DNA from: an uncultured Eubacteriales bacterium
GTDB lineage: Bacteria > Bacillota > Clostridia > Oscillospirales > Acutalibacteraceae
Direction of reading: 5' to 3'
DNA length: 49,981 bases
Assembly (NCBI GenBank): GCA_964500795.1
Contig: CAZCQI010000001.1
Location: 1 to 49,981 of the forward strand
Shown: positions 10,290 to 39,471 of the stretch, in pieces
Layout: every line of letters begins with the position of its first letter
Numbering within the stretch: position 1 is the first letter of the stretch
Translations under genes and position numbers: made by a program
Notes under the pieces: generated by a model
Seen by the model: only the letters and a program-made list of their open reading frames with translations
What the model was told of the DNA's origin: nothing
The model's database searches: none

Positions 10290-10386
10290 CTTGGTATAAT
10301 TTTTAAAATTTTCTATGGTTGACTTAACGCGATATATGTTGTAAAATATATATTTGAGTTTTAATATAAACGAAAGGCTGAAGCAA

Positions 10387-11088: not shown

Positions 11089-11116
11089 ATCGACGGAAGC
11101 TGAAAGGATAAACAGA

Positions 11117-14100
11117 ATGAGTAAAGCGTATATTACAGACAGTTTGCGCTCAATTAAACGCACCTTCAGCAGGTTCGTTTCAATAATCGCAATAGTCGCT
11201 TTGGGCAGTGGACTGTTTTGCGGTTTTAATGCCGTGGGTCCCGATATGCTGAATACCGCGGATGAATACTACGATACATATAACCTTATGGATCTCAGGC
11301 TTCAATCCTATATAGGTCTTTATGAGGAGGATCTGGAGCAGATACGTGCCATTGAGGGCGTTGAATCCGTTCAGGGTGCAAAATTTGTTGACGGTTATGT
11401 TCAAACCCCGAAAGAGGACGGCTCGGGATACGAGGGCATTGTTGATATTGACGGCTCCGAGCTTACAATAAAGGTTATGAGCGTTGACCTTTATAAGGCT
11501 GTTGACTTTGAAAACGGTGTTGATGATCCCAACTATATCAACAGGCTTGACCTTATTGAGGGGCGATATCCCGAAGCCCAAAACGAATGTGTTGTTACCT
11601 GCAGTGACCTTACAACTCCCGAGCAGTTTACAATAGGTAACACCATTAAAGTTGTAGGCGACGGTGAGGATATTTCATATTATCTTAAAAATACCGAATT
11701 CACCATAGTAGGTATCATTAAAACTCCTTATTGGATATCCTATGAGCGCGGTGTTACTACTGCTGGAAGCGGTAAGCTCGGTGATTTCGTTTATGTTAAT
11801 AACGATGCCTTCACGGATAAAATAACCTATTACAGCGAAGCTTATGTCACACTTGAAGGTGCCGATGAATTTCAGGCGTATTCCGATGAATATGATGAAT
11901 TTGTTGAAGGCTACCGTCAGACTATTCTCGCGGCATCAGAGTCCGTTGCGGCTTCAAGGCGTGCTCAGTTAAGCGTGGGTCTTGCAGAGAAGCTTGCAAA
12001 TGCCAAGGTTGAGCTTGATGATGCAGAGGCAACAATAAACGCAAAGATAGCGGATGCACAGGCTCAGCTTGATGAGCTTTACGAGAATGAGAAAAACGGT
12101 GCAGAGCGACTTGCAGAGGCGCAGGCTTTGCTTGATGAAGAATATGCTAAAGCTCAGTCACAGCTTCAAAGCGGCAGTGATGAATACCTCGCCGCCGTTA
12201 ATGAGTATAATGCCAAGATAACATTGGTTTCCCAAAAATCCGTTGAGCTTGCCAACAGTAAGTCGGAATACGAATCAAAAAAGCTTCAGTTGGATTCGTC
12301 TAAAGAACAGCTTGACTCGGCGAAAAATGAGCTCCGAAGTGCCGAATCTCAGATAAATATCACCGAGGGGCTTATAACAAGCACGGAAACGACCCTTGAA
12401 ACATTGCGTGCCAGCCAAAATGTGGCTCAGGAGGATCTTCATCTTGACCAAATGGCAAATCGTCTTGAAGAAACTAACCCGGAGCTTGCCAAGATACTTC
12501 TTTCGGCCTCAAACCTTACTGCTCAGGGTATGGCGGCTGATGCCATAGTTGAGGTTGATGCACTTCTCGAACAGTACAAATCAGAGCTTGCCGTAGCAAA
12601 ACAGCAGAAAGCAGAAGGGCAGGCGGAATATGATTCAAAATATGCAGAATGGGAAAGTGCTTCTGCTCAGCTTTCTGCGGCAAAGGTTCGGCTGGATGAG
12701 GCTGAAGTAGAGTTGGATGCTGCCGAAAAGCAGTTGGCTGATTATAAAGAACAGATAGAAGCCAGCGGCGATCAGCTTCAATACAGTTCAATTGAGGCGC
12801 AAACCTCATATATGACCGCTCAGGCTGAGCTTGCTCTTCGTAATACACAGTATCAGAATATTAAATCGATTATTGCTCAGGCAGAGGCTACATATAATGA
12901 AAGTGTTGAGTCTGCCAACAGGGAGCTGGGAATCTACAAGACTGAGTATAACAAAGGTATGTCTTTGATGGAAAACATTGCGGATGGTGCAGGTTGGTTC
13001 GTTTACACCCGCGATGACTCTCCGGGATATACGGGATACGGTCAGGCGGCTGAAAATATGAAGCGTCTTGCCTATATTTTCCCCACCTTCTTCTTTATTG
13101 TTTCCACCCTTGTTTGCCTTACTACAATGACCCGAATGGTTGAAGAGGAGAGAACTCAGCTCGGTACGCTCAAAGCTTTGGGTTATTCAAACAAAACTAT
13201 TTCGGGAAAATACCTTATATATGCTGCAATAGCAAGTTTTATCGGTATAATCATCGGTGTGGCGGTAGGCTTTACGGGAATACCTCTTGCAATTTGCGGA
13301 GCGTGGGGCATTATGTACGAAATGCCCGCTGTTATTCTTCAGTTTATGCCCGTTTACATTATTCTCGGTGCAGTTATATCTTTGGGTTCAACCGTTCTTG
13401 CGGCTTACCTTGCTTGCCGCAGTGAGCTTGTGACAGTTCCCGCAGTACTGATGAGACCCAAACCGCCTAAAGCAGGTAAACGCGTGTTCCTTGAAAGAAT
13501 CACTTTCATTTGGAAAAGGCTTAACTTTACCTCAAAGGTTACCGTCAGAAATCTTTTCAGGAACGGCAAGCGCTTTGCCGTAACGGTAATCGGTATAGCA
13601 GGCTGTACGGCTCTGATACTTGCTTCATTCGGTCTTAAGGATTCTATCGGCGGTGTAGTTGACAATCAGTACGGAGACGAAAACGGTATTGCAAAATATG
13701 ATTTGCAGGTCGTTCTTGAGGACGGTCAAATGAATTACGAAAACAGTGCTCTTGTTATGAATGTTAATGCTGTTGAGGGAATTCAGGATTCTATGCTCGG
13801 CTACCTTAAGGTTTGCGAAGGCTTCTCAGACAGGTCTGATTCCTCGCTTGAAGTGGATATTCTCGTTCCCGAAGACCCTGCAGGCTTCAATGAATTTGTT
13901 GATTTGCAGTATAAGGGTAAGTCAGTTCCGCTTACGGATAACGGTGCCGTTATAACGAAGAAATTTGCCGATAAAACGGATACCGAAATCGGCGATACGG
14001 TTAAGGTTTCGTGGACGGAAGGCTCAAAGACGGTTGAGTATGAGGTTTTGGTAACCGGTATCGTTGATAACTACGCCTTCCACTATGTATATATGACCCC

Positions 14101-14686
14101 GTATTATTACTCCTCGGTAACAAGCACAGTTTTGTCGTATAACTATTTGTTCTGTAAAATTACCGACGGTATGACTACAGAGTCAAAAGCGGCTCTTGAA
14201 AAGTCTGTAAATGCCATAGACGGTGTCAACGGCTCGGTGTTCACAACGGTAGTTATTGATAACTTCAACAATATAATAAATACCCTCAACCTCGTTATTT
14301 TGGTACTTATCTTTGCGGCTATGGCTCTTGCAATAGTTGTTCTTTACAATCTTAATAACATAAATGTTAACGAGCGAATAAGAGAGCTTGCTACACTTAA
14401 GGTTCTGGGCTTCTATGACGGTGAGGTTTCGGCGTATATTTACCGTGAAAACATTTTCCTTACAATTATAGGTGTTGTCCTGGGTCTGATTTTGGGTATT
14501 CCGCTTAATGTGGCTGTTGTTGGTGTTGTTGATATTGATACTCTCACATTTAAGACAGACCTTGAACCGCTCAGCTTCCTTCTTGCAGCTGCGCTGACGA
14601 TTCTCTTCGCAGTAATCGTTAACCTTGTAATGCATTTTAAGCTGAAAAAGATCAGTATGGTTGAGTCACTCAAATCTGTTGAATAA
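11117..14686 (+). CDS. Large duplicated FtsX-family ABC permease with a ~350-aa extracytoplasmic coiled-coil insert
   Basis: N-terminal TM (FVSIIAIVALGSGLFCG), a MacB-like extracytoplasmic domain, then an A/E/Q/L-rich heptad-like stretch from about aa 290 to 640. First FtsX TM bundle (LKALGYS motif), second extracytoplasmic domain, second FtsX bundle (LKVLGFY motif). Start chosen at ATG 11117 with a GAAAGGA RBS. Confidence 0.85.
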   Translation: MSKAYITDSLRSIKRTFSRFVSIIAIVALGSGLFCGFNAVGPDMLNTADEYYDTYNLMDLRLQSYIGLYEEDLEQIRAIEGVESVQGAKFVDGYVQTPKEDGSGYEGIVDIDGSELTIKVMSVDLYKAVDFENGVDDPNYINRLDLIEGRYPEAQNECVVTCSDLTTPEQFTIGNTIKVVGDGEDISYYLKNTEFTIVGIIKTPYWISYERGVTTAGSGKLGDFVYVNNDAFTDKITYYSEAYVTLEGADEFQAYSDEYDEFVEGYRQTILAASESVAASRRAQLSVGLAEKLANAKVELDDAEATINAKIADAQAQLDELYENEKNGAERLAEAQALLDEEYAKAQSQLQSGSDEYLAAVNEYNAKITLVSQKSVELANSKSEYESKKLQLDSSKEQLDSAKNELRSAESQINITEGLITSTETTLETLRASQNVAQEDLHLDQMANRLEETNPELAKILLSASNLTAQGMAADAIVEVDALLEQYKSELAVAKQQKAEGQAEYDSKYAEWESASAQLSAAKVRLDEAEVELDAAEKQLADYKEQIEASGDQLQYSSIEAQTSYMTAQAELALRNTQYQNIKSIIAQAEATYNESVESANRELGIYKTEYNKGMSLMENIADGAGWFVYTRDDSPGYTGYGQAAENMKRLAYIFPTFFFIVSTLVCLTTMTRMVEEERTQLGTLKALGYSNKTISGKYLIYAAIASFIGIIIGVAVGFTGIPLAICGAWGIMYEMPAVILQFMPVYIILGAVISLGSTVLAAYLACRSELVTVPAVLMRPKPPKAGKRVFLERITFIWKRLNFTSKVTVRNLFRNGKRFAVTVIGIAGCTALILASFGLKDSIGGVVDNQYGDENGIAKYDLQVVLEDGQMNYENSALVMNVNAVEGIQDSMLGYLKVCEGFSDRSDSSLEVDILVPEDPAGFNEFVDLQYKGKSVPLTDNGAVITKKFADKTDTEIGDTVKVSWTEGSKTVEYEVLVTGIVDNYAFHYVYMTPYYYSSVTSTVLSYNYLFCKITDGMTTESKAALEKSVNAIDGVNGSVFTTVVIDNFNNIINTLNLVILVLIFAAMALAIVVLYNLNNINVNERIRELATLKVLGFYDGEVSAYIYRENIFLTIIGVVLGLILGIPLNVAVVGVVDIDTLTFKTDLEPLSFLLAAALTILFAVIVNLVMHFKLKKISMVESLKSVE

Positions 14687-28129: not shown

Positions 28130-29353
28130 ATGGCACGGGATTTTACAAAGGTTTTCATAACGCCCAAGGGAGAAAAATTTATAAAAGGCGGTCACCTGTG
28201 GGTATTCGGTGATGAGGTAACTGCTGTTTCAGGTGAATACGAAAACGGCGATATTGTTGACGTTTATTCTCAAAAAGAACGGTATTTAGGCTCAGGCTAT
28301 ATAAATGACAATTCAAAAATCAGGGTGAGAATTATTTCCCGTAATGCTAATGATAAATTTGATGAAGCATTTTATGAACGAAGGCTTCGTTACGCCATAG
28401 ACTACCGCCGTACGGTAATGGGTGAAGAGGATTTTAAATGTTGCCGCCTTATTTTCGGCGAGGCGGACAGCTTCCCGGGGCTTACCGTTGACCGCTTTGA
28501 AAATATTATAGTTATTCAGGTGCTCTCCCTGGGAATTGAAAAAATCAAGCATTTTCTTATACCCGGATTGGTTAAAATACTCAGAGAGTACGGCGAAACC
28601 GTTGATGCGGTATACGAAAGAAATGATGTTGCAATACGTGAGCGTGAGGGTATGAAGCAGTATAAAGGCTTCTTTGAAGCTGAAGGACTGAAAACTGACC
28701 TTGACGGTGTAACGGTTATTGAAGAAAACGGAATAAAATTTGCAGTGGATTATATAAACGGGCAGAAAACAGGCTATTTTCTTGATCAAAAATATAACCG
28801 CCTTGCAATAAGAAAAATTGCAAAAGGCAGAAAGGTTCTTGATTGCTTTACCCACACGGGAGCTTTTGCTCTCAATGCCGCGGCGGCAGGCGCAAAGCTC
28901 GTTACAGCGGTAGATATTTCGGAAGAAGCAATAAATTCCGCAAAGCGCAATACTGCTCTTAACGGTTTTACCAATATGGAGTTTATTTGCACTAATGTTT
29001 TTGACCTTCTTACCGAAATGAAAGAAGAGAAAAAGTGCGATTACGATTTTATAATTCTCGACCCGCCTGCGTTTACAAAAAGCAGTGCTACCGTTAAGGC
29101 AGCCTACAGAGGATATAAGGAAATAAACCTTAAAGCAATGAAGCTTCTTCCGAGAGGTGGCTATCTTGCAACCTGCTCCTGCTCCCATTTTATGCCGGAC
29201 GAGCTTTTTAAAAAGATGCTCTGCGAAGCGGCAACGGATGCCGGAGTTTCCCTCAGACAGATAGAATGCCGTCAGCAAAGTGCCGACCATCCCGTTCTTT
29301 GGAATGTTCCCGAAACGGATTATTTGAAATTTTATATTTTTCAGGTTGTTTAA
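28130..29353 (+). CDS. rlmI: Class I SAM-dependent rRNA methyltransferase, RlmI/RlmK-like with N-terminal PUA-like domain
   Basis: GHLWVF N-terminus, SAM motif VLDCFTHTGAFAL, catalytic DPPAF and CSCS motifs. Confidence 0.82.
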   Translation: MARDFTKVFITPKGEKFIKGGHLWVFGDEVTAVSGEYENGDIVDVYSQKERYLGSGYINDNSKIRVRIISRNANDKFDEAFYERRLRYAIDYRRTVMGEEDFKCCRLIFGEADSFPGLTVDRFENIIVIQVLSLGIEKIKHFLIPGLVKILREYGETVDAVYERNDVAIREREGMKQYKGFFEAEGLKTDLDGVTVIEENGIKFAVDYINGQKTGYFLDQKYNRLAIRKIAKGRKVLDCFTHTGAFALNAAAAGAKLVTAVDISEEAINSAKRNTALNGFTNMEFICTNVFDLLTEMKEEKKCDYDFIILDPPAFTKSSATVKAAYRGYKEINLKAMKLLPRGGYLATCSCSHFMPDELFKKMLCEAATDAGVSLRQIECRQQSADHPVLWNVPETDYLKFYIFQVV

Positions 29354-29375
29354 AGCCTAACCCCGAGAGACTGAT

Positions 29376-29418
29376 AAAAAGAGCTGTTGTAACGGTGAAG
29401 TTGCAACAGCTCTTTTTT
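29376..29418 (+). terminator. Intrinsic terminator after the rlmI-like gene
   Basis: Stem gagctgttg / caacagctc flanked by an A-run and a tttttt run. Confidence 0.75.
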
Positions 29419-29616
29419 GACTTTTTTTGAATTTTTCTTCGATGAAAAGTTTTGAATTATTTGGTTTTTCAGATGTGTTTTTTCAACTTGAAGCCCATAT
29501 TTACTTGATAATTCATTGCGGCTGTGATATAATTTTGCATATGTGTGAAAGTGTGCGTTTTTTACAAAAATCGAAATTGCATTTTGTAGTATAATGGTGC
29601 AAAGAGGCGAAAACAA

Positions 29617-30435
29617 ATGATTAAATGGCTTCGAAGGATAACCGTGATTGTATTCGTTGTGGTGCTTATTGCCTATGTAGGTTTTTCCTTTATGGCGAAA
29701 GTAACGACAGATACAACTATTCCTGAAATACAAATTGAAACAGATGAACTCGAAATCAGCGTAAAGGATAAAAAAGAGGCTCTGCTCCAAGGAGTTACCG
29801 CCTTTGACCAAAAAGACGGAGATATTACCGACAAGGTTCTCGTAGAGACGGTTTCAAAATTTATAACACCCGGAGAATTTAACGTTACCTATGCCGTTGC
29901 AGACGACGATAATCACGTAACAAAGGCAACGCGCAGAGTTCGTTACACCGACTATACTCCACCTGAGTTTTATATGAAACGGGCTCTTGTATATTCTGTT
30001 GATGAAGCTGTTGATATCAGATCTGCTGTGGGCGCAAGGGATTGTATTGACGGAGATATAAGTGACAGAGTAACTATTACTGCCACCGATTATGTTCAGA
30101 ATACTACAGGCGTATTTAGTGTTTCTCTTCAGGTTTCAAACAGTATGGGTCATATGATATACCTTGATGTTACAGTGCATGTTGAGGGCAATGAAACAAT
30201 GGCTCCGGAAATACAACTGAAGAATACTCTTATATACATAAAAAAAGGTGAAAAACCCGTATTTGAAGATTATATAAAAGAGGTAACGGTAAACGGCGTT
30301 TTGATGAAAGATTACGAATTACTCATTTCAACTAACTTTGACAGTGAACAAGAAGGCACATATAACGTGCATTATTATATTTCAACAAACGGTGGATATG
30401 AAGGTCATTCGATTCTTACGGTTGTTGTTGAGTGA
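29617..30435 (+). CDS. Membrane-anchored protein with repeated Ig-like (DUF5011-type) domains
   Basis: N-terminal TM (ITVIVFVVVLIAYVGFSF). Repeated signature A-x-D-x-x-DGDI(T/S)D(K/R)V occurs twice (AFDQKDGDITDKV, ARDCIDGDISDRV). Confidence 0.6.
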   Translation: MIKWLRRITVIVFVVVLIAYVGFSFMAKVTTDTTIPEIQIETDELEISVKDKKEALLQGVTAFDQKDGDITDKVLVETVSKFITPGEFNVTYAVADDDNHVTKATRRVRYTDYTPPEFYMKRALVYSVDEAVDIRSAVGARDCIDGDISDRVTITATDYVQNTTGVFSVSLQVSNSMGHMIYLDVTVHVEGNETMAPEIQLKNTLIYIKKGEKPVFEDYIKEVTVNGVLMKDYELLISTNFDSEQEGTYNVHYYISTNGGYEGHSILTVVVE

Positions 30436-30450
30436 TAGGTGGGATAATCT

Positions 30451-31926
30451 TTGGAAAAAAATGAATCTTCGTTTAGAATAAACTTCGAATGGCATAGCCT
30501 TCTTAAAGACCTTATTCGCAACATCTGGCTTGTTATCCTTGCAGGGGTGATTGCCTTTTTAGGTATTCGGGTTGTGGAAAACAGTGGTTATACCCCCACT
30601 TACACAAGCAGCGCAGTTCTTGTTGTTCGTTCAAAGGTCGGAACCACAGGGGTGTACAGTAACCTTGAATCCTCAGTTGAAATGGCAAAAATATTTACAA
30701 CTGTTTTTAAACAATCCACAATGAAAAAGCTTGCCGCAGAAAATATCGGTGAGAAATCCTTTAACGGAACAATTCAAGCAGATGTCACCGGAACAACAAA
30801 TCTTTTGAATATTTCTGTGAGCAGTAAGGATCCTGAATTATCCTTTCGCTTACTTTCATCGATTCTTGAGGTTTATCCCGATGTTTCCGATACCATATTC
30901 AGCGATGCTGTTATTGATATTATTTCATATCCTGATATGCCTACATCTCCGTCAAACTCTCCGTTGACGATTTACAGAAACTATATTATTCTGTTTTTTA
31001 TGGCTTTTGAAGCGGCAATGATTTTTCTTTTTTCTATACTGAGAGAAACTGTTAAAGATGAAAAAGGCTTTTTTGAGGATATTGATGCAGAGCTTATAGG
31101 GACCATAGCTCACGAACACCCCCATATTTCATTCAGAGAAAAACTCAAAAAGAAAAAAAGAGCTATGTTGATAAATGATGCTTATTCAACGCTCAAATAT
31201 ACCGAGGATTATCATAAGCTGGCAACGAAGTTTGAATATATGCGAAAAAGGAAGGAGCAAAAGGTTTTTACAGTAACAAGTGTTGCGGAAAATGAAGGTA
31301 AATCAACTGTTGCTTCAAATATAGCTTTAGCACTTTCCGAAAGAGGGTATAAAGTTGCCCTTATAGATCTGGATGTACGCAAGCCCTCTCTGTATAAAAT
31401 ATTTGATTTCCGCCATGAATTGAAAACAGAGTTTTCAGATGTTCTTTCTAACAAAGCCACTTTAAGCGAGTTTGGTTTTTTTTCGTATAAAAAAGGCGAA
31501 TTATTAATAGCTTTCAATAAAAAATCTTACCAAAATTCCCATTATTTATTCAGCAATAAAACATTTAAACAGTGTATTTCGGTTCTCAGCAAAAAAATGG
31601 ACTTTGTTATTATAGATACCCCGCCGTGTTCCGTTTCAGCAGACGCGGTAACAATTTCTTCTTTTGCAGATGCTTCTTTACTTGTTGTGAGAACAGATTG
31701 CGTCGCTGTTGAAGACATAAACGATGCAATTTTGTCCCTTTCTGAATCCGATGGCAATTTTGCGGGCTGTATTCTGAATGATGTACACAAACAGTTCACC
31801 TTATTCGGTCAGATGGGTTCGGAAGAAACAGGATATTACAGGTCGTATTATAACGGTTATTCAAAATATGCCGGAAGCAACAACACAGATTATAAAAGAG
31901 AAATAGTTGACAAAAGAACCGACTAA
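30451..31926 (+). CDS. Fused Wzz-type chain-length-determinant / BY-tyrosine autokinase (paralog 1)
   Basis: Two TM segments bracket a ~150-aa outer domain. The kinase has Walker A-like AENEGKST, Walker A' LIDLDVRKP, Walker B VIIDTPP and a C-terminal Tyr cluster GYYRSYYNGYSKY. TTG start 7 nt after AGGTGGG. Confidence 0.78.
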   Translation: MEKNESSFRINFEWHSLLKDLIRNIWLVILAGVIAFLGIRVVENSGYTPTYTSSAVLVVRSKVGTTGVYSNLESSVEMAKIFTTVFKQSTMKKLAAENIGEKSFNGTIQADVTGTTNLLNISVSSKDPELSFRLLSSILEVYPDVSDTIFSDAVIDIISYPDMPTSPSNSPLTIYRNYIILFFMAFEAAMIFLFSILRETVKDEKGFFEDIDAELIGTIAHEHPHISFREKLKKKKRAMLINDAYSTLKYTEDYHKLATKFEYMRKRKEQKVFTVTSVAENEGKSTVASNIALALSERGYKVALIDLDVRKPSLYKIFDFRHELKTEFSDVLSNKATLSEFGFFSYKKGELLIAFNKKSYQNSHYLFSNKTFKQCISVLSKKMDFVIIDTPPCSVSADAVTISSFADASLLVVRTDCVAVEDINDAILSLSESDGNFAGCILNDVHKQFTLFGQMGSEETGYYRSYYNGYSKYAGSNNTDYKREIVDKRTD

Positions 31927-31965
31927 GACTCTAATAAAAACTAAAGTCAGAAATAAGGTTATTAT

Positions 31966-33435
31966 ATGTACAATGAAAAACCAAATCGGGATATAACCAA
32001 CGCTACCGATGCCGTTAACCTTAAAGTCCTCATAAGCGATATATGGCGCGGATTTGTTAAATTCATCTGGATAGCTGTTGTTCTTGCCGTGCTTTTCGGC
32101 GGAATCCAGTTTTACAGAAGTTATATCAATTTCACCCCTGTTTACACCGTAACCGCAACTTTTACGGTTCAGACCGAAAACAAGGTTCTTTCGGGTGATA
32201 ACGGCGTTTCGGCATACGCCTTTTACTATAACAGAGACACCGCAAATCAGCTTGCATCAGTTTTTCCGTATATAATCAATAACCCAATTCTTACAACAAA
32301 GGTTTGTGAAGAATTGAATGTTAAAGCGATGCCGGCAACCGTTACCGCAACCTGCATTGCCGATACAAATATGGTTACGCTTACCGCAAAGGGATCGGAC
32401 TCTCAAAAAACTTATGATACATTGCTCTCTGTTATTGATAATTATTCTTCGGTTGCCGATTATATAATCGGCCGAACAAAGCTCGTAATAATCAGCGAAC
32501 CCGAAGTTCCGAAACAGCCTTCAAACACAATGGATTGGATTCAATCGGTAGTTATTGCCGCTTTTATCGGCGGTGCCATCGGTGTAGGTTGGATTATTAT
32601 TTATGCTCTTCTGAGAAAAACAATCCGAACAAAAGCGGATATCCGAAAAGTTCTTAATCAAAAGTGTATAGGAGTTATCCCGCAGGTTGTTTTCAAAAAA
32701 TACCGAAGAAAAATTAACACCGATGTTATTCTTACTAATCCCCATATCGGTAACGATTTTTTGGAATCGTTGAGGTTGCTCATGAATTCGGTTCAGAAGC
32801 ATCTTTCTGCCGATGAAAAAATTGTTATGATAACAAGCACCGCTCCCGAAGAAGGGAAATCGGTAGTAACTCTTAACCTTGCATCTGTCTTTGCTCAAAG
32901 CCGCGATGTCCTTGTGGTGGACTGCGATTTGAGAGATTCGGGAATATATCCCTTGGCAACAAACAATGCCGGAACAATCACAACAAAAACAGATAATGAG
33001 ACTTATTCCATAAACCATTTAGAAGCTCTCGGAATTGATTTTCTCAGCTTTAAGGATGGCGAAAGTGCGCTTCAAAGTATAATCCGCACTTCTGAGCTTC
33101 AGGAAATTCTTTCGAAATTAAAGGAGCGCTATGACATAATCTTTGTTGATACGCCTCCTTGCGGTATAATTTCAGATGCCGCTATTGTTGCAAGGGCTTC
33201 GGATGCCATTCTCTATATCGTAAGACAAGATGCTGTTATGCAATCTGTTATAAGAACAAGAATGAGCACTATGCTTCAAACGGAAACAAAGTTCCTCGGT
33301 TGTATTCTTAACGGAGCTACAGGCGGTTTGGGTGGCTACGGCAACTATTATCGGTACGGCGGCTACAACAAATATTACCGTCACGGGTATATGTACAAAG
33401 GAAGCTACGGATATCGCAGTAAAAATAAGAAATAA
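31966..33435 (+). CDS. Fused Wzz-type chain-length-determinant / BY-tyrosine autokinase (paralog 2)
   Basis: Same architecture as paralog 1. Walker A-like APEEGKSV, A' VVDCDLRD, B IFVDTPP and a very Tyr-rich tail GGYGNYYRYGGYNKYYRHGYMYKGSYGYRS. Confidence 0.82.
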   Translation: MYNEKPNRDITNATDAVNLKVLISDIWRGFVKFIWIAVVLAVLFGGIQFYRSYINFTPVYTVTATFTVQTENKVLSGDNGVSAYAFYYNRDTANQLASVFPYIINNPILTTKVCEELNVKAMPATVTATCIADTNMVTLTAKGSDSQKTYDTLLSVIDNYSSVADYIIGRTKLVIISEPEVPKQPSNTMDWIQSVVIAAFIGGAIGVGWIIIYALLRKTIRTKADIRKVLNQKCIGVIPQVVFKKYRRKINTDVILTNPHIGNDFLESLRLLMNSVQKHLSADEKIVMITSTAPEEGKSVVTLNLASVFAQSRDVLVVDCDLRDSGIYPLATNNAGTITTKTDNETYSINHLEALGIDFLSFKDGESALQSIIRTSELQEILSKLKERYDIIFVDTPPCGIISDAAIVARASDAILYIVRQDAVMQSVIRTRMSTMLQTETKFLGCILNGATGGLGGYGNYYRYGGYNKYYRHGYMYKGSYGYRSKNKK

Positions 33436-33452
33436 AGAAAAGAGGTTGCCCC

Positions 33453-35171
33453 ATGAAGAATCCGGGTGAATATGTTGAGCTTTTTCGTTCTCTCGGAAAG
33501 GAATGGAAATGGCTTTTTAAATATATTTCCAAATATCGCGTACAAATCATATTTTATATTATCATAGGGCTTATAAGCACAGCAATGGGTCTGGGCGTTA
33601 ATATTGCAATGAAATATTTAATCGACTCCGTTGTTTCCCATAATAACGAAACAATTATCAAAAGTGCGGCTTTGGCTATCAGTCTGGGACTCACCCAGCT
33701 GATAGTAAGTGCGATTGTTTCACGGATATCATCTGTTGTCGGAACAAAAGTCAGTAACGAGATCAGAGAAAGTGTTTATGAGCATATAACATTTTCAAAA
33801 TGGGAGGATATAGGAAAATATCATTCCGGTGATCTGCTTAACAGAATTGAAGGCGACGTAACTGCTGTTTCAAGCAGCATTATTACGTATATTCCCAATG
33901 TTTTCACAAAAATTGCTCAATTTTTAGGTTGCCTTATAATTGTTCTTTATTATGATCCGACTATGGCAATTTTCGCACTTATGAGTGCACCGTTCTTGGT
34001 TCTTTCTTCAAGAATATCTACTAAAATGATGCGCAAATACAACAAAGAAAGTCGGGAAATGAACGGAAAGATTCTGTCCTTTTATTCAGAATCAATTCAA
34101 AATCTTCAAACAATCAAAGCTTTCGATATAACAAAGCGTTATGTTGACCAGCTTAAAAATAATCTGAAATTATACAGAAAAATTAAACTTGACTACGATA
34201 AATTTTCAATCAAAATAACTCTGTGTATGTCGGTTATAGGGCTCATTGTGTCCTATTGCTGCTACGGTTGGGGTGTTTACCGTCTTTGGCAAGGTGTTAT
34301 TACCTATGGTACAATGACCTTGTTTCTCCAGATTTCCGGTCAACTGACATCATCCTTCTCTGCACTTGTGACGCTTTTTCCGTCTGCAATTTCAATAGCA
34401 ACTGCTGCCGGCAGAATTATGGAGATAACAGATCTGCCTCTTGAAGAATGTAAAAATAACGAAAAAGCTGAAAAAATGGAAAAAAGCGCAAACGAAAGCG
34501 GCTTAACTTTATGTTGTAACGGTCTTACATACACTTATCCCGACTGTAAGAAACCGGTTGTAAGTGATATTACATTCAGAGCTGAGCCCGGAGAAACTAT
34601 TGCTTTTATAGGACCTTCCGGTGAAGGGAAAACAACGATTTTAAGACTCATTTTAGGGCTCGTTGAACCTGATTCAGGCGAAATAACAATGGCAACGAAC
34701 AACGGTGATAATATTCCTGTTTCCGAAAGCACAAGAAGATTTTGTTCATATGTTCCTCAAGGAAACGCAATATTCTCAGGCTCTATAGCAGATAACCTGA
34801 GAATCGTTCGTCCCGAGGCAACCGATGAAGATGTTACCGAAGCGCTGAAAACAGCGGATGCGTGGGGCTTCATAGAAAAATTACCTGAAGGAATCTATAC
34901 TGAAATAAATGAAAAGGGTGTTAATTTCTCAGAAGGTCAGATTCAGCGAATTTCAATTGCAAGAGCAATTTTGAGAGATGCTCCGGTAATTGTTATGGAT
35001 GAAGCTACAAGTGCTCTTGATGCTGCAACAGAGAAAACCGTTCTCGCGAATATGATGAAAGCTTATCCCAACAGAACAAGAATTATAACCACCCACAGAC
35101 CGAGTATGTTAAACTATTGTACAAGAGTTTACAATATTGACAAAAGAGGTAATCTCGTTGAATATAATTGA
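33453..35171 (+). CDS. ABC exporter, fused TMD-NBD half-transporter (MsbA/bacteriocin-exporter type, no C39 peptidase domain)
   Basis: Six predicted TM helices, then Walker A GPSGEGKTT, signature FSEGQIQR and Walker B VIVMDEATS. Starts 17 nt after the second kinase gene. Confidence 0.9.
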   Translation: MKNPGEYVELFRSLGKEWKWLFKYISKYRVQIIFYIIIGLISTAMGLGVNIAMKYLIDSVVSHNNETIIKSAALAISLGLTQLIVSAIVSRISSVVGTKVSNEIRESVYEHITFSKWEDIGKYHSGDLLNRIEGDVTAVSSSIITYIPNVFTKIAQFLGCLIIVLYYDPTMAIFALMSAPFLVLSSRISTKMMRKYNKESREMNGKILSFYSESIQNLQTIKAFDITKRYVDQLKNNLKLYRKIKLDYDKFSIKITLCMSVIGLIVSYCCYGWGVYRLWQGVITYGTMTLFLQISGQLTSSFSALVTLFPSAISIATAAGRIMEITDLPLEECKNNEKAEKMEKSANESGLTLCCNGLTYTYPDCKKPVVSDITFRAEPGETIAFIGPSGEGKTTILRLILGLVEPDSGEITMATNNGDNIPVSESTRRFCSYVPQGNAIFSGSIADNLRIVRPEATDEDVTEALKTADAWGFIEKLPEGIYTEINEKGVNFSEGQIQRISIARAILRDAPVIVMDEATSALDAATEKTVLANMMKAYPNRTRIITTHRPSMLNYCTRVYNIDKRGNLVEYN

Positions 35172-35243
35172 ATTTTTATTTCCGTTATTTTTTAAAGAAC
35201 AGTCCCTTTCTTACTCTTTAATAAGATTTTTGTGTATTTTATA

Positions 35244-35272
35244 TTGAAATAAAAAAACAACAATGTTATAAT
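35244..35272 (+). promoter_or_regulatory. Near-consensus sigma-A promoter for the PqqD/rSAM/peptide/kinase operon
   Basis: TTGAAA-N17-TATAAT with a TGt extended -10, 45 nt upstream of the ATG at 35317. GAGG RBS. Confidence 0.65.
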
Positions 35273-35316
35273 TTATTGTGGTATAGGTTGCGAAAAGACT
35301 TTGTGAGGTTCTTATT

Positions 35317-35583
35317 ATGTATAAAATTAAAGATGGTTTTATAATAAGAAAAATCGGTGGCCGGATAATGGCAGTTCCTATCGGAAGCAGAACCGGCAGC
35401 ATACATGGAATGATCGCTTTAACCGAAAGCGGTGAACTTCTTTGGAATGTCCTTGAAAAAGGGGCAGATACCGAAAAGCTTGTTACAGTTTTAACTGATA
35501 ATTACGAAGTCGAAAAAACGGTTGCAATCGCCGATGTAGAAAAGTTTATTGCCAATCTTGCGCAACAGGGTGTGCTCGAATGA
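35317..35583 (+). CDS. PqqD-family protein (stand-alone RiPP recognition element / peptide chaperone)
   Basis: 88 aa with the pattern typical of PqqD-like proteins (IIRKIGGRIMAVP ... LTESGELLWNVLEKG ... LVTVLTDNYEV ... DVEKFIANLAQQGVLE). ATGA overlap with the radical SAM gene. Confidence 0.72.
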   Translation: MYKIKDGFIIRKIGGRIMAVPIGSRTGSIHGMIALTESGELLWNVLEKGADTEKLVTVLTDNYEVEKTVAIADVEKFIANLAQQGVLE

Positions 35584-36629
35584 TTGATTGCGGACAAATC
35601 GGCAACGATTACATAGAACAGCTCAGAGCATGGGCAAAACGTAATTTCGTTCCGCTTACTGCTACCTTCGAATTAACTCCTTTTTGCAATTTCGATTGCG
35701 TTATGTGCTATGTTCATTTAACAAAAGAAGCAGCCGAAAAGCAAGGCAAGCTGCTTACTGCCGACGAATGGATCGAAATAGCCCAACAAGCAAAAAATAT
35801 GGGCACTCTTAACCTTTCCTTAACCGGCGGTGAACCGTTTTTGCACCCTGAGTTCTGGAAAATCTACGAAGAACTGAACAAAATGGGGTTTTTGATTTCT
35901 GTTTTATCCAACGGCTCAATGATTGACGAGTCTGTAATGGAAAAATTTCGTAAATACGGTATGCCGTATATGGTTAAGCTCACTCTTTACGGTGCAAGCG
36001 ATGAAACATATCAACGCACCTGCAATTCACCAAATGGCTTCACAAGGTTTACAAAAGCCGTTGATCTTCTTAAAGATGCGGGAGTACCATTAAGTATAAC
36101 CTCAACCATAGTAAAAGAAAACGTAGATGATTTGCAAGATATCTACCGTTTTGCAAGAGAAAGGAATTTGCCTTTACAGCATACAATAACCGTGGTTAAA
36201 TCCTCCAGAGGGTCAATAAACACAATTGAAAAATCCCGGTTTAATTTTGATGATTATTGTGAGAAGCTGACTCTTGATGACCTTGAAAAAAGTAAATTTC
36301 CTTCTGCTGATGAGCCGTTTTCTTTATGCGGCAGCTTCGGAAATTCCTTCTGGATGACTTGGCACGGGCATTTACAGATGTGTTCATTTATGAACCTTCC
36401 TGACGTCCCGTATTCAGGAAATTTAAATTCAGATTTTAAAAAGCTGAATGAAATGCTGTTAAAACTGAGAAATCCCGTTGAATGCGAGAAGTGTCAGTAT
36501 AAAACATTCTGCCAAAGATGTCCCGGAATTTTGTGCGGTGAGAGCGGACACCCTGAAAAAACAACCGACAGAATCTGTAGCTTAGCAAGACGATTTTTTG
36601 AATTATATAAAACCAAGAAAGAGAATTGA
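35580..36629 (+). CDS. Radical SAM enzyme with C-terminal SPASM-type auxiliary-cluster domain
   Basis: CNFDCVMCY (CX3CX2C) and a GGEP motif (LTGGEPFLHPEF). C-terminal C-x12-G-x4-C, then CEKCQYKTFCQRC (CX2CX5CX2C) plus two more Cys. Only 349 aa, with no N-terminal RRE. Confidence 0.85.
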   Translation: MIDCGQIGNDYIEQLRAWAKRNFVPLTATFELTPFCNFDCVMCYVHLTKEAAEKQGKLLTADEWIEIAQQAKNMGTLNLSLTGGEPFLHPEFWKIYEELNKMGFLISVLSNGSMIDESVMEKFRKYGMPYMVKLTLYGASDETYQRTCNSPNGFTRFTKAVDLLKDAGVPLSITSTIVKENVDDLQDIYRFARERNLPLQHTITVVKSSRGSINTIEKSRFNFDDYCEKLTLDDLEKSKFPSADEPFSLCGSFGNSFWMTWHGHLQMCSFMNLPDVPYSGNLNSDFKKLNEMLLKLRNPVECEKCQYKTFCQRCPGILCGESGHPEKTTDRICSLARRFFELYKTKKEN

Positions 36630-36630
36630 T

Positions 36631-36897
36631 ATGAAAAAGAAATATATCGTTCCCGACTGTAAGCTTTTTGCAATCAATATAAGTGAAAATATTGCAGCTT
36701 CCGGAGGTTCTTCTGAAATCTCGGGCTCTGCGGTTATTCAGTTTTTTCAATATATTGATGGTTGCAGAGGTATTTATACAAAAAATGATACGGCAACTGT
36801 AAACCCGAATAATTCTACTTTTATGGATTACTATAATGAATTGCTCACATACGGTGCCGAAGTTTATTTTAATTGTTTCCGCTACCAATACGGATGA
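36631..36897 (+). CDS. Candidate RiPP precursor peptide (88 aa), Tyr/Phe-rich C-terminal region
   Basis: ATG lies 1 nt after the rSAM stop, with an AAGAAAGAGAA RBS. The stop overlaps the next start (ATGA). Sequence: MKKKYIVPDCKLFAINISENIAASGGSSEISGSAVIQFFQYIDGCRGIYTKNDTATVNPNNSTFMDYYNELLTYGAEVYFNCFRYQYG. I recognised no family. Confidence 0.5.
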   Translation: MKKKYIVPDCKLFAINISENIAASGGSSEISGSAVIQFFQYIDGCRGIYTKNDTATVNPNNSTFMDYYNELLTYGAEVYFNCFRYQYG

Positions 36898-37661
36898 AAA
36901 TACGTATCGCAGATTTGCCCATAGAATGGCAAGAAGACAGGCAAAACTATGTTGAGACTTTCAGCTCTCAAACTCAGGAAGAACCGATAATGGTTGTAGG
37001 CTTTGAAAATAAGTTGCCTGAATGTCACGGAATTCAGTATCCTGAAAAAAATACAGAGCATATACTCAGAACGGGAAACGGCGAAATGCTTTGCGCAAAC
37101 TCAGATTGGAGCAAGGTAACGTCGTATTTCACAGCAGAGCTCGGCGAATACGCTTTGACTCTTGCTGCTATGTGTTCAAGATTATCCTATTACGATACGG
37201 TCCTTATTCACGCATCTTGCATTGACCTTGACGGAGAAGGCGTGATTTTTACAGGCTTTTCAGGTGTCGGAAAAACCACCCAAGCAAAACTGTGGCAGGA
37301 CTGCCGGGGCGCAGATATAATTAACGGCGATAAAGTTTTTGTTCGCGAAATTGACGGCAGCTTTTACGGTTGCGGTTTACCTTGGAAAGGCTCGTCGGAA
37401 TATTGCCTTAACAAAAAAACAAAGCTTAAAGCAATTATTGTTTTACGCCGGTCAAAAGAAAATAAAATAACAAAACTTAATACCCTCTCTGCTATAGAGT
37501 ATTTTATGCCTCATATCTTTATACCGCATTGGGATGAAAAATGCACCGATAATGCTTGCAGTATATTTGAAAAAATTCTTGAAAAAGTTCCTGTTTTTTT
37601 ACTTGAATGTCGTCCTGATGAGGATGCCGTCACACTTGTGGAAAATACGGTTTTTAAATAA
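36894..37661 (+). CDS. HPr-kinase-C-terminal-domain-like P-loop protein (putative peptide kinase)
   Basis: LIHASCIDLDGEGVIFTGFSGVGKTTQAKLWQDCRGADIINGDKVFV parallels the HprK core (H-x-x-x-V...G-x-G-V-L-I-T-G-x-S-G-x-G-K-S ... L-V-x-D-D). Start set at the ATG at 36894 (ATGA coupling). Confidence 0.62.
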   Translation: MKIRIADLPIEWQEDRQNYVETFSSQTQEEPIMVVGFENKLPECHGIQYPEKNTEHILRTGNGEMLCANSDWSKVTSYFTAELGEYALTLAAMCSRLSYYDTVLIHASCIDLDGEGVIFTGFSGVGKTTQAKLWQDCRGADIINGDKVFVREIDGSFYGCGLPWKGSSEYCLNKKTKLKAIIVLRRSKENKITKLNTLSAIEYFMPHIFIPHWDEKCTDNACSIFEKILEKVPVFLLECRPDEDAVTLVENTVFK

Positions 37662-37698
37662 TAAATCCGTTTCTTCATACGCGAAGCGTATATCATTG

Positions 37699-37737
37699 AA
37701 AAACACTCTTTTGTCGACCCGGCAAAAGAGTGTTTTT
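37699..37737 (+). terminator. Intrinsic terminator ending the RiPP-like operon
   Basis: 13-bp arms aaaacactctttt / aaaagagtgtttt followed by a T-run. A small atacgc-gaa-gcgtat hairpin sits at 37677-37691. Confidence 0.75.
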
Positions 37738-37775
37738 GTGTGGCATCGAACCCAAATATGCCTTAAATGAATAAA

Positions 37776-37805
37776 TAAAAACAGCTCACCGTATCGGGTG
37801 AACTG
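37776..37805 (-). terminator. Intrinsic terminator of tRNA-Gln
   Basis: On the minus strand, cagttcacc-cgatac-ggtgagctg followed by tttttattt. Confidence 0.65.
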
Positions 37806-37811
37806 TCTATC

Positions 37812-37885
37812 TGGCAGCGGGATAGGGATTCGAACCCCAACAAACAGAGTCAGAGTCTGTCGTGCTACCGTTACACTATCCCGCT
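37812..37885 (-). tRNA. tRNA-Gln (anticodon CTG)
   Basis: The reverse complement folds as a cloverleaf. Acceptor AGCGGGA/TCCCGCT, D stem GTGT/GCAC, anticodon stem ACAGA/TCTGT with loop CTCTGAC, T arm TGGGG-TTCGAAT-CCCTA, and an encoded CCA. Confidence 0.85.
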
Positions 37886-37898
37886 AAGAACGGGTGTT

Positions 37899-37927
37899 AT
37901 TATACTATCAGTTTTTCAGAATGTCAA
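37899..37927 (-). promoter_or_regulatory. Consensus sigma-A promoter for tRNA-Gln
   Basis: Minus strand reads TTGACA-N17-TATAAT, ending about 13 nt upstream of the tRNA 5' end. Confidence 0.7.
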
Positions 37928-38020
37928 GAGTTTATTCTAAAAAAATCAGAAAAAACCATAAAAAATTTAAAAAATTAAAGACAAATAAAAAAGAGGTTGT
38001 TTTTTGGTATTTGCGTCACC

Positions 38021-38049
38021 TTTACAAATCTGTATGTGTGTATTATAAT
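38021..38049 (+). promoter_or_regulatory. Sigma-A-type promoter for the MocR-like gene
   Basis: TTTACA-N17-TATAAT, 50 nt upstream of the ATG at 38100. Flanked by TTGGTA(T/A) repeats at about 38004 and 38054. Confidence 0.5.
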
Positions 38050-38099
38050 GCTTTTGGTAATACAAAAAGTATCGGAGAGGGGATTTATCACATAACAGG

Positions 38100-39185
38100 A
38101 TGAAATATATAGTTGATAAAAAAAATAAGGAGCCTGCATACATACAGCTTTACACTCAATTTCGTAATGATATTGTGAGCGGGGTTTATAAATACGGTGT
38201 TAAATTACCCTCTAAAAGGCTTGTTGCGACGGAAACAAATGTCAGTGTTGTGACGGTGGAGCACGCTTATGAGCTTCTTTGCGATGAAGGGTATGTACGA
38301 TCTAAGGAGCGAAGCGGTTATTTTGTTGAATACAGTGCCGAGGAATGCTTTCCCGTTGGGGAGCCGTCGGCAAATGAAAAAGCGGTCAAATACCATAACA
38401 TTGATACAGATTTTCCGTTTTCGGTGTATTGTAAAACGGTGAGACGGGTGCTCAGCGAATACGGAGAGGATATTCTTATTAAATCGCCCAATAACGGTTG
38501 CAGAGAGCTGCGCCGTGCCATAGCCGCATATCTCGTAAGAAGTCGCGGTATGAGAGTGGATGCATCACAGGTTATTATCGGTTCGGGTGCCGAGTATCTT
38601 TACAGTCTTATAGTGCAGATGCTGGGGAGAGATAAAATTTTTGCTCTTGAAAATCCGTCTTATGAAAAAATACGCAAGGTGTACGGTGCCAACGGTGTCA
38701 ATTGCGAAATGTTAAAAATGGGTGCCGACGGTATCAGAAGTGACGAGCTTGAAAAAACACTCGCCGGTGTTCTCCACGTCACCCCGTTTAACAGCTTTCC
38801 CAGCGGAGTTACCGCCACCGCTTCCAAAAGAAATGAATATGTGCGTTGGGTGAGAGAACGTGACGGTATTTTGATAGAAGATGATTTCGATTCCGAATTT
38901 ACCGTTTCCATGAAAGCGGCTGATACGCTTTTTTCTTTGGAGCCCGAAAGAACCATATATATGAATACATTTTCAAAAACCGTTGCCCCGTCTGTGCGTA
39001 TCGGTTATATGGTTTTGCCTGAAAAGCTTATAGCCACCTTTGAGAAAACCGTGGGCTTTTATTCCTGCACGGTACCTATACTCGAGCAGTATGTTCTTGC
39101 GCAATTTATAGATAACGGTGATTTCGAGCGGCATATAAACAGGGTGAGGAGGAAAAGAAGAAATAAATTGACGCGTAACGGATAA
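38100..39185 (+). CDS. GntR/MocR-family regulator (wHTH plus fold-type-I aminotransferase-like domain), apparently C-terminally truncated
   Basis: GntR wHTH (LPSKRLVATETNVSVVTVEHAYELLCDEGYV) and PLP-Lys motif NTFSKTVAPSVRIGYM. The ORF stops about 75 aa later, whereas my recollection is that MocR proteins run about 100 aa longer. Confidence 0.7.
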   Translation: MKYIVDKKNKEPAYIQLYTQFRNDIVSGVYKYGVKLPSKRLVATETNVSVVTVEHAYELLCDEGYVRSKERSGYFVEYSAEECFPVGEPSANEKAVKYHNIDTDFPFSVYCKTVRRVLSEYGEDILIKSPNNGCRELRRAIAAYLVRSRGMRVDASQVIIGSGAEYLYSLIVQMLGRDKIFALENPSYEKIRKVYGANGVNCEMLKMGADGIRSDELEKTLAGVLHVTPFNSFPSGVTATASKRNEYVRWVRERDGILIEDDFDSEFTVSMKAADTLFSLEPERTIYMNTFSKTVAPSVRIGYMVLPEKLIATFEKTVGFYSCTVPILEQYVLAQFIDNGDFERHINRVRRKRRNKLTRNG

Positions 39186-39203
39186 AATTTATATAAAAAA
39201 CAG

Positions 39204-39232
39204 TTGACATTTTTTATTTGTTATGGTAATAT
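39204..39232 (+). promoter_or_regulatory. Consensus sigma-A promoter for the tRNA-Ser pair
   Basis: TTGACA-N17-TAATAT with a TGg extended -10, ending 16 nt before the first tRNA. Confidence 0.7.
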
Positions 39233-39248
39233 ATCAAGGCTGATAAAT

Positions 39249-39337
39249 GCAGAGATACCGAAGTGGTTATAACGGAACGGTCTTGAAAACCGTCGTACGG
39301 CAACGTACCGTGGGTTCGAATCCCACTCTCTGCGCCA
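39249..39337 (+). tRNA. tRNA-Ser (anticodon TGA), class II with long variable arm
   Basis: Acceptor GCAGAGA/TCTCTGC, anticodon stem ACGGT/ACCGT with loop CTTGAAA, variable arm GTACG-GCAA-CGTAC, T arm GTGGG-TTCGAAT-CCCAC, and an encoded CCA. Confidence 0.85.
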
Positions 39338-39380
39338 CCTCTTTTGAGGACAATTTAATAACTGATTTCCAGTTACCAAT

Positions 39381-39471
39381 GCAGAAGTACTCAAGTTGGT
39401 GACGAGGCGCCCCTGCTAAGGGCGTAGGTCGGGAAACCGGCGCGAGAGTTCGAGTCTCTCCTTCTGCGCCA
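39381..39471 (+). tRNA. tRNA-Ser (anticodon GCT), class II with long variable arm
   Basis: Acceptor GCAGAAG/CTTCTGC, anticodon stem CGCCC/GGGCG with loop CTGCTAA, T arm GAGAG-TTCGAGT-CTCTC, and an encoded CCA. Confidence 0.85.

Follow-up and report, generated by a model that had tools for sequence, protein, structure and literature searches.

Linear polyphosphorylated peptides (LPPs) have been described in Bacilli, where capsule loci harbour their gene clusters (Popov et al., Nat Commun 2026; PMC13381572). Their core set comprises a SipW-like peptidase (LppS), a discrete recognition element for peptides that are made on the ribosome and modified after translation (RiPP recognition element, RRE; LppB), an HprK-like kinase (LppK), an NTP-transferase (LppN) and an MsbA-like pump (LppD), and the precursors, 35–200 aa long, carry a YxxP-containing leader. 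LppK adds several phosphates to Ser3 of the core, LppS cleaves after T-1 only in the presence of LppB, and [Y/W]xxP is the leader motif bound by lasso-type discrete RREs; the role of the LPPs was left open by the authors, who mention biofilm as speculation (PMC13381572). In pseudomycoidin, PsmK phosphorylates the C-terminal Ser, mutation of its Asp-Asp pair abolishes phosphorylation, and the NTP-transferase PsmN is required for addition of a hexose on the phosphate (PMC6993621). Here we describe a four-gene operon in which an LPP-like frame is joined by a radical S-adenosylmethionine (SAM) enzyme. It lies in a 49,981-nt stretch of DNA from an uncultured Eubacteriales bacterium of the Acutalibacteraceae (GenBank assembly GCA_964500795.1, contig CAZCQI010000001.1, positions 1 to 49,981); this whole stretch is referred to below as the window.

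The operon is very probably a RiPP-type peptide-maturation unit, in which the RRE would serve both the radical SAM/SPASM enzyme and an HprK-fold enzyme on the product of a small open reading frame (ORF). Its features, in window coordinates, are:

35244..35272, plus strand: extended -10 promoter of the four-gene cassette (TTGAAA-17 nt-TATAAT with TG extension; 11/12 matches)
35317..35583, plus strand: discrete PqqD-family RRE, 88 aa (Pfam PF05402)
35580..36629, plus strand: radical SAM enzyme with a SPASM-type C-terminal cysteine set and no fused RRE, 349 aa (Radical_SAM match and cysteine pattern)
36631..36897, plus strand: probable precursor peptide, 88 aa (leader, about residues 1–24, MKKKYxxP...ExIAxS; core with invariant C45 and C82)
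36894..37661, plus strand: ScmC-family P-loop protein of the HprK/PEPCK fold, 255 aa, putative peptide Ser kinase (fold match and motifs)
37699..37737, plus strand: intrinsic terminator hairpin at the end of the operon (18-bp hairpin and U-run)

Relation to described systems

Relatives of the P-loop protein were sought by scanning one genome per species, and 343 genomes held one. Locus comparisons rest on the best 80 of these 343, nearly all of them metagenome-assembled genomes labelled Acutalibacteraceae or Clostridia and many from ruminant guts; orthologue counts are given over 81 or 82 loci. Measured against the LPP set, the window cassette or its neighbours contain a discrete lasso-type PqqD RRE, an HprK-fold enzyme, an MsbA-like exporter (the counterpart of LppD) and a precursor, tens of residues long, in which a YxxP leader is conserved and the core varies; most relatives of the window also carry a SipW-like peptidase and an NTP_transf_5 protein and lie in capsule loci. 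The relatives therefore hold every LPP component in the same type of locus, together with a radical SAM/SPASM enzyme. LPP products are linear, with no further class-defining modification enzyme, whereas this enzyme is an invariant member of the cassette. The LPP paper makes no mention of one: the words "radical", "rSAM" and "SPASM" are absent from its text and accessible supplements (PMC13381572). The systems also differ in their precursors, which here form a distinct family with two conserved Cys and, apart from the Tyr, Pro, Glu and (one residue off) Ser positions, do not match the LPP motif YxxPxVLxHQxIxFETxxS; in their hosts, which are Clostridia (Acutalibacteraceae) rather than Bacilli; in the kinase-like protein, which belongs to the Pfam family ScmC and is sub-threshold for Hpr_kinase_C; and in the window's lack of a SipW-like peptidase and NTP_transf_5. 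Sequence comparison with the LPP system was by way of the LppA leader, rebuilt from a primer table, and of a PDB chain that is probably LppB.

SynChlorMet (TIGR04249 ScmC, TIGR04250 ScmE, TIGR04251 ScmF) exists as a curated computational prediction only. The cassette is reportedly due to Haft and is said to consist of PqqD, radical SAM/SPASM and ScmC proteins. A PqqD homologue, a radical SAM/SPASM enzyme and a ScmC-family protein are likewise present in the window, where the P-loop protein falls in PF27840 and the best NCBIfam match of the radical SAM enzyme is ScmE. However, the window encodes one radical SAM enzyme instead of two, the scores for ScmE and ScmF (78.9 and 63.1 bits) stay far under the cut-offs of 400, and the taxa and gene neighbourhood are unlike those of the window. 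Our literature search on SynChlorMet and ScmC found no publication that mentions the cassette.

The lasso-peptide clusters of the paeninodin and pseudomycoidin type combine a B1-type RRE that binds a [Y/W]xxP leader, an HprK-like kinase acting on Ser, an NTP-transferase and an ABC (ATP-binding cassette) exporter, parts with putative counterparts in the window or its relatives, but no ORF for an Asn-synthetase-like lasso cyclase or a B2 cysteine protease was found in or beside the window operon, where a radical SAM enzyme stands in place of the class-defining enzyme. Similarly, the maturases of sactipeptides and ranthipeptides (AlbA, SkfB, StsB, PapB) offer a radical SAM core, a SPASM-type Cys set, dependence on an RRE and a Cys-bearing core peptide. 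In contrast to those systems, the window RRE is a separate protein, the maturase profiles score 50–76 bits against cut-offs of 300–850, the core of about 60 residues has only two conserved Cys, and a kinase-like partner is present.

The cassette is not categorically new, then: its kinase/RRE/exporter/peptidase/transferase frame is the LPP frame, and the combination of PqqD, radical SAM and ScmC is a curated prediction. New are the invariant radical SAM enzyme within the LPP frame, the precursor family, the Clostridia hosts and the constant pairing with two genes for fusions of Wzz and a tyrosine autokinase (BY-kinase). A first-pass annotation of this DNA, made from the sequence alone, had taken the operon for a candidate uncharacterised RiPP pathway, not recognised as a described class. 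As far as found, an LPP-type kinase/RRE module extended by a radical SAM enzyme does appear to be undescribed, but the LPP frame (2026) and the ScmC/SynChlorMet prediction both exist. Literature searches for HprK, radical SAM and precursor peptide found no publication combining them, and a search for PqqD, radical SAM, capsule and tyrosine kinase returned nothing relevant.

Operon architecture and conservation

Direct reading of the sequence agreed with the first-pass annotation on the gene junctions. The pqqD stop and the radical SAM start share an ATGA overlap (35580–35583), a gap of 1 nt separates the radical SAM stop (TGA, 36627–36629) from the peptide ATG at 36631, and a second ATGA overlap joins the peptide stop to the P-loop gene start (36894–36897). 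The extended -10 promoter and the strong terminator named in that annotation were likewise confirmed. A TTGAxx-N16-18-TAxxxT site, mostly with TG before the -10 element, lies 5' of pqqD in 46/81 orthologous loci, and the window promoter is therefore unlikely to be a chance match; in the other loci, the ABC gene runs almost without a gap into pqqD. The terminator was not picked up by a simple terminator scan, but folding confirmed the hairpin (-26.5 kcal/mol, z = -5.5), with 0/200 shuffles as stable. Since an Rfam scan of 29300–38100 returned tRNA as its sole match, no known riboswitch or leader RNA lies near the operon. Many orthologous loci share an ATAGGGT-like motif about 10–20 nt past the -10 hexamer, within the 5' untranslated region (UTR; window 35273–35316); the window version is TATAGGTTG, Rfam has no match there, and the motif may represent a conserved feature of the 5' UTR or an operator.

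The order and spacing of the PqqD, radical SAM, small ORF and P-loop genes were kept in all 80 loci (given enough flank), down to about 40% identity, and two peptides missed by tblastn were found by reading ORFs in the loci. The four-gene cassette with its small ORF is thus conserved as a unit, on which the first-pass annotation had made its RiPP proposal depend.

A further line of evidence comes from a second, paralogous module, located between the ABC gene and pqqD in locus L084 (5268–8295) and also present, judging by spacing, in L001, L002, L006–L008 and L014–L016. In L084, the module encodes a SipW-like peptidase of 164 aa, a radical SAM enzyme of 387 aa (33% identity to its counterpart in the window, E 3e-50), a peptide of 54 aa that has two Cys and begins with a YxxP leader (MKKTYSTPVAEKIEFRYSDQVIASGLTCTQVWIGFGDGLTSGCTHTVQIPDSGF; no family in an NCBIfam scan), and a 377-aa protein in which a ScmC/HprK-like domain (34% identity, E 4e-29) is followed by a C-terminal PqqD domain (33%, E 1e-17). 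The fusion of a kinase-like domain to PqqD argues that the kinase-like enzyme acts on a peptide, and the module also shows that the pairing of a radical SAM enzyme with a kinase-like enzyme recurs.

Probable precursor peptide and recognition protein

The 88-aa product has a conserved leader and a variable core, as RiPP precursors usually do, and is probably such a precursor peptide. Its ORF is matched by 53 protein clusters (48–74% identity), NCBIfam and Pfam scans placed the peptide in no family, and the cassette unit contains no other small conserved ORF. Residue conservation was assessed in 26 aligned relatives and in a wider-family alignment. In the wider family, the N-terminus is the best conserved part (M-K-K-x-Y-x-x-P ... 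E-x-I-A-x-S), with Y5, P8, E19, I21, A22 and S24 essentially invariant. It is followed by a variable insertion rich in Gly, Ser and Asp and then by a strongly diverging core that keeps two Cys, C45 (in a C-R context) and C82; the C-terminus is the most variable part. The peptide of L077 retains the leader but has a largely different core. An AlphaFold model of the peptide alone was of low confidence (mean predicted local distance difference test, pLDDT, 47) and was used solely for the prediction that residues 1–35, with pLDDT <50, are disordered. Codon 10 of the window peptide (36658–36660) encodes Cys where at least 90% of the 26 aligned relatives have Ser, and the window peptide therefore has three Cys, compared with two conserved in relatives.

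Rebuilt from the primer table, the LppA leader reads MEENTKREQKLYARPMVLSQQPVRFET, followed by AQSW. When the two peptides are aligned on Tyr and Pro, window Y5, P8 and E19 correspond to LppA Y-16, P-13 and E-2, and S24 falls one residue past S3. S24 is the only Ser near the junction that is conserved across the wider family.

The recognition element is encoded separately from the radical SAM enzyme, as the first-pass annotation had stated, and matches Pfam PF05402 at 46.5 bits (cut-off 23.4). In a PDB search with a profile made from 20 orthologues, the nearest solved structures were those of lasso B1 proteins (TbiB1, 2.8e-6; TfuB1, 8.9e-6), with 9x90_B at 2.5e-4, and the window RRE is by these matches of the lasso-B1 type. 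TbiB1 and TfuB1 also scored above chain 9x8z_B, which is probably LppB.

Putative modifying enzymes

The radical SAM enzyme matches Pfam Radical_SAM at 102.6 bits. Its C36, C40 and C43 form the CX3CX2C motif, and eight further Cys lie toward the C-terminus (C250-x12-G263-x4-C268, C302-x2-C305-x5-C311-x2-C314-x4-C319 and C333); both sets are conserved in 99–100% of 81 orthologues. The SPASM assignment is made from this cysteine pattern only, because the Pfam SPASM model gave no match at E <= 0.1. The AlbA, StsB and SkfB profiles align to residues 20–28 onward, beginning at about profile position 98–111. Since these profiles of RRE-bearing maturases align only from about position 100, the enzyme lacks an N-terminal RRE. 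The first-pass description of a short (349 aa) enzyme with CX3CX2C and SPASM-type cysteines and no RRE of its own was thus accurate.

No NCBIfam family cut-off was reached by the radical SAM enzyme. Its best match, ScmE, is the one given above, and all matches were limited to the generic core domain. Assignment to the PQQ (pyrroloquinoline quinone), mycofactocin, anaerobic sulfatase maturase, AhbD/NirJ or MoaA families was rejected, with core-only matches of 38–79 bits against cut-offs of 180–850. Membership in the anaerobic sulfatase maturases had been raised at the outset as a possibility that would remove the enzyme from RiPP maturation. Of the profile searches proposed with it, PqqD and Radical_SAM scored above cut-off, while SPASM gave no match and Hpr_kinase_C fell short.

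From 25 homologues, AlphaFold gave a confident model of the P-loop protein (pLDDT 93.5). Foldseek matched it to phosphoenolpyruvate (PEP) carboxykinase at 5.6e-8 and to HprK/P at about 1e-5 to 1e-6, and H106, GxSGxGKT and D146, all invariant in the 25-member alignment, align to the His, the P-loop and the second Asp of HprK/P. The HprK/PEPCK fold is thus present, but membership in HprK/P proper was rejected (TIGR00679, 22 bits versus 240; Hpr_kinase_C, 22.3 bits versus 33.3). The precomputed Pfam hit of the protein and its relatives is PF27840 "ScmC"; the ScmC-like proteins form a family of about 10,000 representative clusters at 50% identity. The window protein had no TIGR04249 match at E <= 0.1, and 40/62 of its wider relatives matched that model weakly (best, 1.5e-9).

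Locus context

Upstream of the cassette lies a second transcription unit, preceded by a strong terminator at 29376–29417:

29505..29533, plus strand: promoter-like site of the upstream transcription unit (TTGATA-17-TATAAT with TG)
29617..30435, plus strand: membrane-anchored immunoglobulin (Ig)-like surface protein, first gene of the unit (Pfam Bact_surface_Ig-like, 42.6 bits)
30451..31926, plus strand: Wzz and BY-kinase fusion, copy 1, with a Tyr-rich C-terminus (TIGR01007, 123.7 bits versus cut-off 108; Pfam Wzz and ParA/AAA_31)
31966..33435, plus strand: Wzz/BY-kinase-like fusion, copy 2, with a Tyr-rich tail (TIGR01007, 93.6 bits, below cut-off 108)
33453..35171, plus strand: MsbA-like ABC exporter, fused permease and ATPase, no C39 domain (ABC_membrane, 126.7 bits; ABC_tran, 92 bits)

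The Ig-like protein occupies the same position in L081, L083 and L084, and an orthologue of copy 1 lies upstream in sampled related loci. L035 is the one related locus with a long enough flank that has no copy 2. The ABC protein, whose best NCBIfam match is MsbA_rel (304 bits), is by analogy with LPP clusters a candidate peptide exporter. Among the related loci whose flanks reach far enough, only L035 and L067 have no ABC exporter upstream of pqqD, and L035 also has no Wzz/kinase genes.

The two closest relatives (71–72% identity) have a textbook Gram-positive capsule locus, in the order LytR, CpsB, Ig-like protein, two Wzz/kinase genes, ABC gene, cassette, peptidase, transferase, priming transferase and glycosyltransferases. 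More widely, a protein of about 145–165 aa, with its best match to archaeal-type/SipW signal peptidase I, lies directly downstream of the cassette in 60/82 loci. An NTP_transf_5 nucleotidyltransferase is present in 66/82, and after it a Bac_transf priming transferase, glycosyltransferases and Wzy are usually found. Neither a SipW-like peptidase nor an NTP_transf_5 copy was found by tblastn in the window's 50 kb, and similar trimmed loci are L034, L044, L072, L078 and L080.

The conserved neighbours show that the operon is not self-contained, as the first-pass annotation had called it: the MsbA-like exporter, the two Wzz/BY-kinase fusions and the Ig-like protein are conserved upstream, and most relatives have the peptidase, NTP_transf_5 and a capsule locus downstream. 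While that label did not hold and the label of an undescribed class held only in part, the proposal of a RiPP operon is supported by the conserved gene order, the YxxP leader and the paralogous fusion of kinase-like and PqqD domains.

On the 3' side, the window has a tRNA-Gln (37812–37885, minus strand), then a GntR/aminotransferase-like gene and two tRNA-Ser (37662–39471). Because the operon ends at tRNA-Gln where the closest relatives have peptidase, transferase and capsule genes, a rearrangement or deletion at this tRNA cluster is likely. The Ig-like gene and the two tandem, paralogous Wzz/kinase fusions (29617–33435) are retained in the window, with no LytR, CpsB or glycosyltransferase genes nearby; for this reason the window looks like the remnant of a capsule locus that retains only regulators, exporter and peptide cassette.

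Elsewhere in the window, an FtsW/RodA/SpoVE-family protein carries a fused FHA domain (554 aa in all), and a penicillin-binding transpeptidase follows, its start overlapping the end of the first gene (7240–10289). At 10354–14686, an ABC ATPase gene overlaps the start of a gene for a 1205-aa FtsX/MacB-type permease.

Proposed pathway and alternatives

We propose that the 88-aa peptide is crosslinked by the radical SAM enzyme, phosphorylated on Ser by the P-loop protein and exported. The leader (MKKKY-x-x-P ... E-x-I-A-x-S) would be bound by the 88-aa PqqD-type protein, which would then act as an adapter that offers the peptide to both enzymes. The radical SAM/SPASM enzyme would place at least one crosslink in the core. 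The simplest and most likely products would be thioethers formed by C45 and C82, with aromatic C-C links as a further possibility. The ScmC-family enzyme would phosphorylate a Ser near the leader-core junction, for which the analogy with LppA Ser3 makes S24 the leading candidate, and the product would leave through the upstream MsbA-like ABC pump. In most related genomes, the SipW-like peptidase would remove the leader and the NTP_transf_5 protein would probably decorate the phosphate, the set being located in a capsule locus between chain-length/tyrosine-kinase genes and a priming glycosyltransferase. The window would represent a trimmed version, devoid of peptidase, transferase and sugar genes, and as it has no leader peptidase and no NTP-transferase, its product may differ or stay uncleaved. 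We put the probability of this pathway as a whole at roughly 0.55: the gene set and its order, the translational coupling, the conservation, the folds, the cofactor-binding and catalytic motifs and the leader motif are observed, and the chemical steps and the biological role are inferred.

Several observations weigh against the proposed pathway. For the radical SAM enzyme, there is the missing match to the Pfam SPASM model, and the weak scores are at an equal level for non-RiPP curated families (AhbD, MoaA, NirJ) and for RiPP maturases. The P-loop protein scores below the Hpr_kinase_C cut-off and below threshold for every NCBIfam HprK model, and it keeps only one of the two catalytic Asp of HprK/P (NGDK versus ADD). 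Compared with the stretch between E-2 and S3 in LppA, that between E19 and S24 has one residue more and varies with insertions, and the peptide core is conserved family-wide across hundreds of species, which is unusual for a secreted antimicrobial. Finally, the window lacks the SipW-like peptidase and NTP_transf_5 that most relatives have.

The points concerning the P-loop protein could also be explained if the peptide were modified by the radical SAM enzyme only, and the ScmC-like protein were not a peptide kinase but a phosphorylase, an ATP-dependent scaffold or chaperone, or an enzyme for an intermediate of capsule synthesis, for example undecaprenyl phosphate or a sugar phosphate. Beyond the sub-threshold HprK scores and the replacement of one catalytic Asp by Gly, this explanation draws on a structure closer to PEP carboxykinase, a small-molecule kinase, than to HprK/P, and on the position of the locus among polysaccharide genes in relatives. 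We nevertheless regard it as unlikely, though deserving of real weight, given that the paralogue fuses the ScmC-like domain to a PqqD peptide-binding domain, that the P-loop gene is translationally coupled to the peptide gene, and that HprK-like proteins in analogous RRE clusters have been shown to phosphorylate the peptide (PMC6993621, PMC13381572). A secreted antimicrobial of the sactipeptide or ranthipeptide type, with the capsule adjacency incidental, would account for the presence of the usual bacteriocin parts (PqqD, radical SAM/SPASM enzyme, Cys-containing peptide and ABC exporter). It seems improbable, however, for a core that is long (about 60 residues) as well as broadly conserved, with no immunity gene or C39 peptidase domain seen, in a cassette that lies inside capsule loci in the closest relatives and stays linked to the two Wzz/BY-kinase genes even in trimmed loci that have lost the sugar genes.

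The peptide could alternatively be the precursor of a small cofactor or metabolite, with a few residues crosslinked and the rest trimmed, as in the PQQ and mycofactocin pathways. The best, if weak, matches of the radical SAM enzyme include PqqE and the mycofactocin maturase, a PqqD-type partner is common to these systems, and the mycofactocin pathway includes a sugar-adding enzyme, as relatives of the window do. Still, the scores stand far from the cut-offs (PqqE, 73.4 bits versus 381; mycofactocin maturase, 64 versus 265; PqqD, 16.7 versus 46), the C-terminus of the peptide is its most variable part, a dedicated exporter is conserved and the neighbourhoods examined showed no partner oxidoreductases, which together make a cofactor precursor very improbable. 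Least probable of all, to our minds, is that the 88-aa ORF encodes a small folded accessory protein while another gene, outside the unit, encodes the true substrate. In favour of it, the last 50 residues are fairly well conserved, with weak secondary-structure predictions and pLDDT of 51–69. Against it stand the invariant YxxP leader, the predicted disorder of the N-terminus, the variation of the core in distant members and the absence of a rival small ORF from the unit. Moreover, the paralogous module has its own YxxP peptide, of 54 aa, in the same position.

Implications for capsule-linked peptides in Clostridia

If the chemistry of the crosslinking and phosphorylation pathway holds, the 88-aa peptide would belong to a class that combines a radical SAM crosslink with Ser phosphorylation of the HprK type, a combination that we did not find described. 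The cassette is not rare: the 343 species-level genomes with relatives include a best 80 that are nearly all animal-gut Acutalibacteraceae or Clostridia. The trimmed version in the window, devoid of peptidase, transferase and sugar genes, is a natural minimal set for reconstitution.

The position of the cassette between Wzz/BY-kinases and sugar-transfer genes offers a handle on the role of LPPs and phosphorylated lasso peptides. The mature product might itself be a component of capsule assembly, in the form of a crosslinked, Ser-phosphorylated and, in most relatives, sugar-decorated peptide that is exported beside the Wzz/tyrosine-kinase machinery and primes, anchors or regulates capsular polysaccharide. 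We consider such a role distinctly unlikely at this stage; if true, it would mean that a ribosomal peptide is built into the biogenesis of a cell-surface glycan. More generally, the cassette could connect ribosomal peptide chemistry with capsule or biofilm formation.

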